This document shows, piece after piece, positions 28,641 to 28,840 of a stretch of 64,000 bases of DNA. Origin of the DNA: a virus (Duplodnaviria; Heunggongvirae; Uroviricota; Caudoviricetes). The DNA lies in IMG/VR virus record IMGVR_UViG_3300046474_000237, positions 7,469 through 71,468 of that record; one strand, given 5' to 3'. The notes under the pieces are model-generated. The model ran no database searches. It was not told the origin of the DNA and saw nothing but the letters and a program-made list of their open reading frames with translations. Numbering within the stretch: position 1 is the first letter of the stretch; every line of letters begins with the position of its first letter. Made by a program: the position numbers and the translations under genes.

Positions 28641-28650
28641 TTGGTATAAG
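28641..28650 (+). promoter_or_regulatory. phage promoter motif TTGGTATAAG
   Basis: Conserved decamer plus the downstream box taatttgtggaag. Drives the tRNA-like element. Confidence 0.55.
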
Positions 28651-28707
28651 TAATTTGTGGAAGCAGATTCGTGAGAATCGGGATCCATTTTTATTAGTGA
28701 ACTGCTT

Positions 28708-28778
28708 GGGCCAGTAATTCAATGGGAGAATAGGGTACTCATAATACCTCAACCCTGGATCGTAACCAGGCTGGCCCA
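28708..28778 (+). ncRNA. tRNA-like element, anticodon CAT (Met/Ile2-type) with 16-bp extended acceptor helix and non-canonical T-loop
   Basis: gggccag-ta-attc-aatggga-gaat-a-gggta-ctcataa-tacct-caac-cctgg-atcgtaa-ccagg-ctggccc-a. The leader gaactgctt (28699-28707) pairs with the trailer aagcagttc (28779-28787). No CCA encoded. Confidence 0.55.
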
Positions 28779-28803
28779 AGCAGTTCGTTGATACAGTTTT
28801 CCC

Positions 28804-28840
28804 GAAGGACCTCAGCTTAATCGAGGCCCTTTATTTTTTG
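28804..28840 (+). terminator. rho-independent terminator
   Basis: ggacctc...gaggccc stem followed by tttatttttt. Confidence 0.5.

Follow-up and report, generated by a model that had tools for sequence, protein, structure and literature searches.

A conserved leader-trailer duplex around a stand-alone, CCA-less tRNA(CAU) gene of a tailed phage: a candidate rRNA-like processing stem

We analyzed a 64,000-nucleotide (nt) stretch of a tailed-phage genome (class Caudoviricetes; positions 7,469 to 71,468 of IMG/VR record IMGVR_UViG_3300046474_000237; here called the window), in which a first-pass annotation had picked out a stand-alone transfer RNA (tRNA)-like element with an extended acceptor helix. 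The element, at positions 28708 to 28778 on the plus strand, is very probably a real tRNA gene, with a CAU anticodon, that lies within a conserved leader-trailer duplex acting at the level of RNA. The best explanation for the locus as a whole, toward which we lean without regarding it as secure, is a stand-alone gene for an Ile2-type tRNA that has no encoded CCA and whose clamped precursor carries a processing stem of the RNase III type. That RNase III would be the first enzyme to act is a more tentative proposal, plausible rather than probable.

The nine nucleotides that precede the tRNA in the window, gaactgctt (28699 to 28707), are perfectly complementary to aagcagttc (28778 to 28786), and the probability of such a match arising by chance is about 4e-6 per tRNA. 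The first-pass annotation had recognized this complementarity but placed the 3' arm one base too late; the arm begins at the discriminator base itself. It had also described a 16-bp helix. The extension is there, but 28692 to 28698 also pair with 28787 to 28793 (7 bp, of which three are G·U), so that 16 consecutive flank pairs and 7 acceptor pairs give a total of 23 bp. The two 16-nt arms, both on the plus strand, are tattagtgaactgctt (28692 to 28707) and aagcagttcgttgata (28778 to 28793), of which the latter starts with the discriminator and fills the place of CCA. The minimum free energy of the folded helix is -47.8 kcal/mol (z = -6.6), and 0 of 200 shuffled sequences fold as well. The three G·U pairs can form only in RNA made from the plus strand.

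Helices of this design are found at eight loci, four of them around tRNA(CAU) and four around tRNA-Arg(UCU), and the arm sequences differ between loci. At tRNA(CAU), the flanks contribute 16 bp in the window, 15 bp in the related locus L002 (and L003), and 13 bp in L011, and 13 of 14 flank positions are paired in L004. At tRNA-Arg(UCU), the window copy (40037) has 7 bp and 6 bp on either side of one A·G mismatch, and between 11 and 13 of the first 13 flank positions are paired in L008, L013/L014, and L015. Over the first 13 positions of all eight loci, 99 of 104 positions are paired; in a control that set the 5' arms of one tRNA family against the 3' arms of the other, the figure was 6.5 of 13. 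The total length of the duplex stays within 20 to 23 bp at all eight loci.

Pairing is maintained by compensation. Between the window and L002, a G-C pair becomes U-A at flank position 4 and another becomes A-U at position 9, and changes on both sides of a pair with pairing kept are seen within both tRNA families. Furthermore, the arms of the eight loci hold 16 G·U pairs versus 1 A·C pair (binomial P = 2.7e-4), which indicates selection on plus-strand RNA and not a decaying DNA palindrome. The innermost two flank pairs of L013 and L015 join G-1 and G-2 with C74 and C75, and the discriminator is bulged out; these pairs correspond to the 2-bp extension known from E. coli, which suggests that the long helix grew from an extension of that kind. 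For tRNA(CAU), the comparison draws on six related loci that were recovered through the neighboring ATPase gene: L001, L002 (identical to L003 in the tRNA(CAU) region), L004, L011, and L012. L011 and L012 were added by a metagenome scan with the ATPase, and a second IMG/VR scan, with an ATPase alignment, gave the same four contigs. A protein-database search with the N-terminal region of the ATPase gave nothing beyond a fragment of this phage itself. Among cultured phages, Rhizobium phage V1VFA-S gave the best match to the ATPase (38% identity); it was rejected as a relative, as its gene order differs and it has three tRNAs only.

The presence of the helix is linked to the absence of an encoded CCA. 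All eight helix-bearing tRNAs lack it, the 3' arm occupying the CCA site, and no helix is present in L001 and L012, the two loci whose tRNA(CAU) orthologue encodes CCA. Among the 21 tRNAs of the window, 18 encode CCA, each with at most 2 flank pairs, and across the whole phage group the CCA-encoding tRNAs have at most 3. The duplex is an alternative to encoding CCA. It is also rare. The same flank-pairing script was run on the tRNAs of 120 unrelated IMG/VR loci (388 distinct tRNAs, 226 without CCA), and none of these viral tRNAs has a comparable flank helix; 387 have 3 bp or fewer, and one has 6 bp within an A/T run. Nor is there a comparable helix at any of the eight tRNAs of phage T4, where the CCA-less tRNAs (Gln, Pro, Ser, and Ile-CAU) have 0 or 1 flank pairs.

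Rfam model RF00005, whose gathering score is 29, recognizes the enclosed element as a tRNA with 53.3 bits (E = 5.9e-11) over model positions 1 to 71, and ARAGORN calls it tRNA-Met(cat). The Rfam score comes from a scan of 301 nt; scans of 24 kb and 64 kb missed the tRNA because of their speed filters. All four stems of the cloverleaf are intact. The anticodon is at 28740 to 28742 within the loop CTCATAA, the T-loop ATCGTAA is at 28759 to 28765, the discriminator is A28778, and the 3' tail reads AAGC where ACCA would stand. Thus, covariance-model scoring and ARAGORN both agree with the 71-nt, CCA-less cloverleaf that had been read from the letters, with its CAT anticodon and ATCGTAA T-loop. The second CAT tRNA reported at 23960 is likewise present.

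The window tRNA is probably of the tRNA-Ile2 type, an assignment based on its equivalent position in relatives and on the identity elements that it retains. The determinants for TilS and isoleucyl-tRNA synthetase (IleRS) in E. coli are C4-G69, C5-G68, U12-A23, C29-G41, A37, A38, and A73, although the rules of the phage's own host may differ. Read from its sequence, the window tRNA retains G1-C72, C4-G69, C5-G68, U12-A23, A37, A38, A73, and the loop CUCAUAA. At the equivalent position, the tRNA of L004 shares 90.5% identity with E. coli genes that carry a tRNA-Ile annotation (CAT anticodon, Ile2 type); the tRNAs of L001, L004, and L012 are canonical; and the loop CTCATAA is present in all relatives. 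This loop and the acceptor pairs are retained in every tRNA(CAU) variant. The first-pass annotation had suggested an Ile2- or initiator-like species. The former part of that suggestion gains support from the L004 orthologue and the retained elements, but an initiator tRNA-fMet was rejected because positions 1 and 72 are paired (G1-C72) and because only one of the three loop-proximal pairs of the anticodon stem is G-C (G27·U43, G28-C42, G29-C41, U30-A40, A31-U39).

The version of tRNA(CAU) in the window is unique in the collections searched, given that a megablast search of 27000 to 31000 against 50,697 phage records gave no match, an exact search for the 5' half of the tRNA in IMG/VR gave none, and blastn of the hairpin against phages gave a chance match only. 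Its T-loop, which had been singled out as unusual, has the sequence described but is not a special mark, since 6 of the 21 window tRNAs have noncanonical T-loops (those at 20941, 23223, 23960, 24123, 28708, and 38785). The variants include A54/U58 in Ile-GAU and tRNA(CAU), GTCACTA in Lys, and changes at position 56 in the Ala, Cys, and Met tRNAs.

The tRNA(CAU) gene appears to have a transcription unit to itself, between an HNH endonuclease gene (28030 to 28635, plus strand) on the 5' side and an AAA+ ATPase gene (28884 to 30962) on the 3' side, as the first-pass annotation had described. The putative promoter, TTGGTATAAG (28641 to 28650, plus strand), is of the extended -10 type (TGnTATAAG) with no -35 element, and transcription would start near 28657. 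The 9-mer TGGTATAAG occurs as 16 exact copies in the window, on the plus strand only and usually just 5' of genes or tRNAs; about 0.5 copies would be expected by chance in 128 kb. The motif is kept at the equivalent site in L001, L002/L003, L004, and L011, and this recurrence, both within the window and among relatives, speaks for the promoter that had been proposed at 28641. A scan for the sigma-70 consensus did not call it in the window because it has no -35 element and because of its final G. In the 5' leader, a small hairpin may form at about 28657 to 28688 on the plus strand (core GATTC-GTGA-GAATC, 28666 to 28679; -11.9 kcal/mol, z = -2.2), and another small hairpin, different in sequence, is found at this site in relatives.

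The putative intrinsic terminator (28804 to 28840, plus strand) consists of a hairpin at 28804 to 28832 with one A·C mismatch and a following T-tract, TTTATTTTTT. In the window it is weak alone (-10.4 kcal/mol, z = -0.75) and was not called by a consensus terminator scan. All relatives have a hairpin and T-tract at the equivalent site, with one of two stem sequences (GGACCTC/GAGGTCC or CCCCTCT/AGAGGGG), and the scan did call the L001 copy. It is this comparison with relatives, and not the window alone, that supports the terminator and, with it, the earlier description of a self-contained promoter-tRNA-terminator unit. The flank-helix hairpin was rejected as the terminator itself, as no consistent U-tract follows it and a dedicated terminator comes after. 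The stretch that separates the terminator from the ATPase start codon (28841 to 28883) holds a conserved block, TGCAGCACTT..TTTAGCC, followed by a GCCGCAAGGC hairpin. Similar T-rich TTTAGCY blocks stand after hairpins in other intergenic regions (near 13350, 33548, 43021, and 59772), and the TGCAGCACTT..TTTAGCC block may represent a second class of promoter.

We propose the following route of maturation for tRNA(CAU), in which all of the enzymatic steps are conjectural. The extended -10 phage promoter would drive a transcript that ends at the unit's own terminator. In this primary transcript, the 16-nt leader and the 16-nt trailer would pair, turning the 7-bp acceptor stem into a continuous duplex of 23 bp (a "pro-tRNA") that would join both ends, insulate the folding of the tRNA from flanking RNA, and offer about two turns of double-stranded RNA. 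A double-strand-specific enzyme, most likely the host RNase III, would make the first cut, after which RNase P and 3' trimming, by RNase Z/BN or by exonucleases, would complete the ends and the CCA-adding enzyme would supply CCA. TilS would turn C34 into lysidine, and the tRNA would then read AUA codons.

The case for a step ahead of RNase P starts from the finding that a 2-bp extension of the acceptor stem cuts the kcat/Km of E. coli RNase P about 10-fold, extended stems having to be unwound before cleavage (PMC10731613). Because two pairs already have this effect, a perfect extension of 16 bp should block direct 5' maturation, and the paired trailer should hinder 3' processing; the first-pass annotation had likewise expected the extension to impede RNase P and 3' processing. 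A processing stem in the manner of ribosomal RNA (rRNA) is proposed because the uniform 20 to 23 bp, about two helical turns, match the leader-trailer stems of rRNA and of small cytoplasmic RNA (scRNA). Measured against a length of at least 20 bp, about two turns, for such stems, the duplex has 23 bp in the window and 20 to 23 bp at the seven other loci. The comparison is with the leader-trailer helix of 16S rRNA (PMC10250234) and with the scRNA of Bacillus subtilis, which RNase III excises from its precursor at one 5' and one 3' site (PMC1935012). As in those systems, a stable RNA has flanks that pair with each other over about 20 bp or more, which joins the ends and encloses the mature RNA. 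Unlike them, a single 71-nt tRNA is enclosed here, with no spacer before the acceptor stem, and cleavage by RNase III is something we infer. Since the duplex runs directly into the acceptor stem, the cut ends would still need RNase P and 3' trimming.

Other known systems share only some of these features. The CCA-less tRNAs of T4 (Gln, Pro, Ser, and Ile-CAU) are also phage tRNAs without an encoded CCA, among them an AUA-reading tRNA-Ile(CAU), and the homing endonuclease gene segB lies between tRNA-Arg(UCU) and tRNA-Ile(CAU) in T4. They mature by way of host RNase BN/Z and the CCA-adding enzyme. However, they have next to no flank pairing and belong to a tightly packed cluster. The short extensions of E. 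coli pre-tRNAs (G-2 and G-1 with a 3' RCC) resemble the present helix in that the leader pairs with bases past the discriminator, but they amount to 2 bp, whereas the present extension has 13 to 16 bp and CCA is missing its A. In YrlA, a bacterial Y RNA that mimics tRNA, a tRNA-shaped domain similarly sits on a long terminal stem, formed by the 5' and 3' ends, and there is no free CCA end. Yet YrlA is circularly permuted, running from the T arm through a closed acceptor hairpin to the D arm, its stem leaving from the position of the anticodon stem and its acceptor being closed by a loop, whereas the tRNA(CAU) has the normal order, an open acceptor stem, and an intact anticodon loop. Y RNA identity was rejected for this wrong topology, and an Rfam scan of 28600 to 28900 gave no YrlA match (E <= 10). 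In the archaeal bulge-helix-bulge stems of tRNAs and rRNAs, paired flanks also mark an enclosed RNA for excision; for the splicing endonuclease to act, those stems need two 3-nt bulges 4 bp apart, whereas the helix here is continuous and belongs to a bacteriophage. With 16 uninterrupted flank pairs, that motif was rejected as well.

The second helix-clamped tRNA of the window, tRNA-Arg(UCU), lies at 40037 to 40110 on the plus strand, has no CCA, and is flanked by arms at 40023 to 40036 and 40110 to 40123. An HNH gene (39521 to 40051), which matches Pfam family PF01844, overlaps it: the last codons of the gene form the 5' arm of the helix, and its stop codon (40049 to 40051) is inside the tRNA, so that excision of the tRNA would leave the HNH messenger RNA (mRNA) without a stop codon. 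Comparison with L013 places the insertion of this HNH gene within the original 5' arm of the tRNA-Arg helix, for which it supplied a new arm. The HNH protein encoded beside tRNA(CAU) (28030 to 28635) has the motif CxxC...HH...CANCH and is 40% identical to that at 39521 to 40051 (E = 5e-40). Its gene stands between the upstream gene and the promoter in the window and in L002/L003 and is absent from L001, L004, and L011. With this motif and this patchy presence, it looks like a free-standing homing endonuclease cassette. There are four HNH paralogues in the tRNA region of the window, the other two being at 20384 to 20779 and 24201 to 24809 on the minus strand. Per 1,000 codons, these four genes together contain 22 ATA and 29 AGA, compared with 2.9 and 4.6 in 18 core genes. 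The one richest in ATA adjoins tRNA(CAU), and the one richest in AGA adjoins tRNA-Arg(UCU).

The tRNA bodies within the helices have been exchanged. L004 and L011 are 95 to 97% identical over about 9 kb, and their flanks around the tRNA(CAU) unit differ at only two positions. Nevertheless, the tRNA(CAU) has been replaced together with the inner arms, about 110 nt in all, with break points inside the arms. The L004 body is canonical, and the L011 body has a long variable arm; the phage group thus holds three unrelated tRNA(CAU) bodies in one frame. The long-armed form occurs in L002 at 5833 to 5916 (as in L003) and in L011 at 3816 to 3900, with a CAU loop and a variable arm made of a GGA/TCC stem and a GAAA loop (37.1 bits). 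Between L002 and L011, its anticodon stem and T stem have undergone compensatory changes; the combination of a class II-type body and a CAU anticodon is unusual. The homing endonuclease SegB of T4 recognizes the T-psi-C motif of tRNA genes and spreads its tRNA region (PMC2330249). By analogy, one could hypothesize that the odd bodies represent tRNA variants resistant to the adjoining HNH endonuclease, a hypothesis that is weakened by the presence of the same bodies in L008 (Arg) and L011 (CAU), where no HNH gene adjoins.

Another, conserved tRNA-like RNA, absent from the window, is found in L001 (5764 to 5834), L002 (5747 to 5816), L004 (5739 to 5811), L011 (3727 to 3799), and L012 (1273 to 1345). 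Its L002 copy reaches 49.5 bits with the tRNA model, and it is situated between the promoter and tRNA(CAU) in L001, L002/L003, L004, and L011. Its anticodon arm is a 4-bp stem with a loop of 4 to 6 nt, so that there is no anticodon; its acceptor stem is nearly all A-U, CCA is absent, and the T arm is followed by TTGTTTT, which resembles a terminator.

Elsewhere, the window is rich in genes and structures related to RNA. Pfam matches at 1643 to 2551, 9390 to 10703, 10709 to 13141, 54699 to 55526, and 61493 to 62356 make up a large RNA-repair set: a Thg1-like 3'-5' polymerase, Hen1 beside Pnkp (with domains for kinase, phosphatase, and ligase), an RNA-repair protein with a "Swiss Army Knife" HAD domain, and a phosphoesterase of the DHH/DHHA1 type. 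A Ro60/Rsr orthologue (58067 to 59722) has TROVE and Ro60 vWA domains (E = 2e-34 and 4e-55), and about 560 nt upstream of it there is a candidate YrlA-like Y RNA (57387 to 57502). In a scan of 1.1 kb with RF02553, this RNA scored 30.1 bits (E = 3e-4), short of the model's gathering score of 69. An amber suppressor tRNA (CTA) at 27076 to 27151 (69.3 bits) is kept in L002, L004, L011, and L012, and L001 has an opal suppressor (TCA) instead; a check of 18 long genes found no in-frame TAG. A structured RNA about 92 nt long is conserved at 39366 to 39457 in the window, 3406 to 3497 in L013, and about 3494 to 3580 in L015; it starts with GGGCGTG and ends with GTCCACCA, which would form an acceptor-like stem with ACCA; it has three internal hairpins with covariation, and neither ARAGORN nor Rfam called it a tRNA. 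The window also encodes a peptidyl-tRNA hydrolase (PTH2; 22803 to 23213), a protein with an RF-1 domain that looks like ArfB (34099 to 34713), and an NAD salvage pair (NMNAT-Nudix and NAMPT; 43564 to 46147).

Several observations weigh against the explanation that we favor, a CCA-less Ile2-type tRNA released from an RNase III-type stem. No gene for RNase III, RNase Z, or the CCA-adding enzyme was found among about 48 open reading frames (ORFs) of the window that were scanned, and the pathway would depend on host enzymes. The tRNA-Ser(GCU) at 21608 has neither CCA nor a helix, so that loss of CCA does not always go with the helix. Pair 29-41 of the window tRNA is G-C, where E. coli tRNA-Ile has C29-G41, and the tRNA is strongly diverged overall, with an AU-rich D stem (ATTC/GAAT), the A54/U58 T-loop, and a variable loop of 4 nt; this unusual body and the lack of a close sequence match make the identity of its amino acid uncertain. 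Finally, the comparison rests on eight loci from only about seven phage genomes. In a rival explanation, the duplex is solely a clamp that keeps both ends joined, stabilizes folding, and shields the RNA from exonucleases and RNase E. It would be removed without a dedicated double-strand cut: either the helix would breathe or be opened by a helicase, after which RNase P and RNase Z/BN would act, or exonucleases would remove it with the aid of the phage's Ro60 and Y RNA. The missing RNase III gene would fit such a clamp, as would the AU-rich single-stranded stretches directly outside both arms, the Ro60 orthologue, YrlA-like RNA, and other RNA-repair genes encoded in the window, and the mismatches or bulged discriminators at other loci, which could ease opening. 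However, a perfect extension of 16 bp at -47.8 kcal/mol goes far beyond the 2 bp that slow RNase P, the uniform 20 to 23 bp are better suited to a double-stranded RNA substrate, and four stand-alone tRNAs of the same window (Leu at 19229, Tyr at 22551, Pro at 25690, and the suppressor at 27076) do without a clamp. We regard the clamp as rather unlikely. The hairpin-locked molecule might also be the end product, that is, a tRNA mimic or decoy that soaks up a host tRNA nuclease or modification enzyme, or a regulator, as the first-pass annotation had entertained. Such a role would agree with a helix expected to block RNase P, the missing CCA, the noncanonical T-loop (A54/U58) and D arm, the rapid evolution of a locus where relatives have three unrelated tRNA(CAU) bodies at one site, the wealth of tRNA-repair and counter-defense genes, and the tRNA-like element without an anticodon loop in the same transcription unit of relatives. 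Yet all four stems are intact, the L001 and L012 orthologues are ordinary CCA-encoding tRNAs, L004 combines the helix with a fully canonical tRNA-Ile2-like body, and every variant retains the CTCATAA loop and the acceptor pairs. Moreover, tRNA-Arg(UCU) shares the design, noncanonical T-loops are common among the CCA-encoding tRNAs of this phage, and the heavy use of ATA and AGA by its HNH genes creates a demand for both tRNAs. The earlier suggestion thus finds little footing, and we consider a decoy or regulator quite improbable.

Two further explanations have still less in their favor. The inverted repeats could act in DNA, as a palindrome or cruciform for HNH recognition or recombination, or could bound a mobile tRNA cassette, with RNA pairing as a by-product. 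The HNH genes that adjoin both helix-bearing tRNAs of the window and the L002/L003 copy, and the swap of tRNA and inner arms between L004 and L011 with its break points inside the arms, are in line with this idea. It is nevertheless very improbable. G·T is a mismatch in DNA, and neutral decay would have given A·C as often as G·U, against the 16 to 1 observed; the pairing is strand specific; the helices of L004, L011, L008, L013, and L015 have no adjoining HNH gene; and only an action in RNA can explain the strict tie to a missing CCA. Alternatively, the tRNA-shaped hairpin could be a structured 5' untranslated region or attenuator of the AAA+ ATPase mRNA. No TGGTATAAG promoter separates the terminator from the start codon of the ATPase gene (28884), and the window terminator is imperfect. 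But a terminator after the tRNA is kept in every relative, the ATG is preceded by the separate conserved block that is possibly a promoter of another class, and the same helix design recurs at tRNA-Arg in a different gene context, so that we give this explanation hardly any credence.

Because two extra acceptor pairs already slow RNase P, the pre-tRNAs of bacteria and phages are expected to have single-stranded leaders; 13 to 16 extra pairs, kept by compensation in two tRNA families and always without CCA, imply an rRNA-like route of maturation, one that is so far undescribed for phage tRNAs. If confirmed, such a route would add a step, possibly a point of control, to the pathways of tRNA maturation. 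It would also show how a tRNA can be insulated within mRNA-dense phage genomes and would provide a compact, portable design for tRNA expression. A bolder scheme, which we think improbable as a whole, is that the rare-codon tRNAs Ile-CAU and Arg-UCU are duplex-locked pro-tRNAs with controlled release, through a double-strand cut or through the phage's set of factors for RNA repair and quality control (Ro60 and Y RNA, the Thg1-like protein, and Pnkp/Hen1), and that the arms form a portable frame for swapping tRNA bodies, as seen between L004 and L011, with HNH homing and host tRNA nucleases as possible driving forces. The rapid replacement of bodies in a constant frame, together with homing endonucleases and RNA-repair genes, makes this locus a good system for the study of phage-host conflict over tRNAs.

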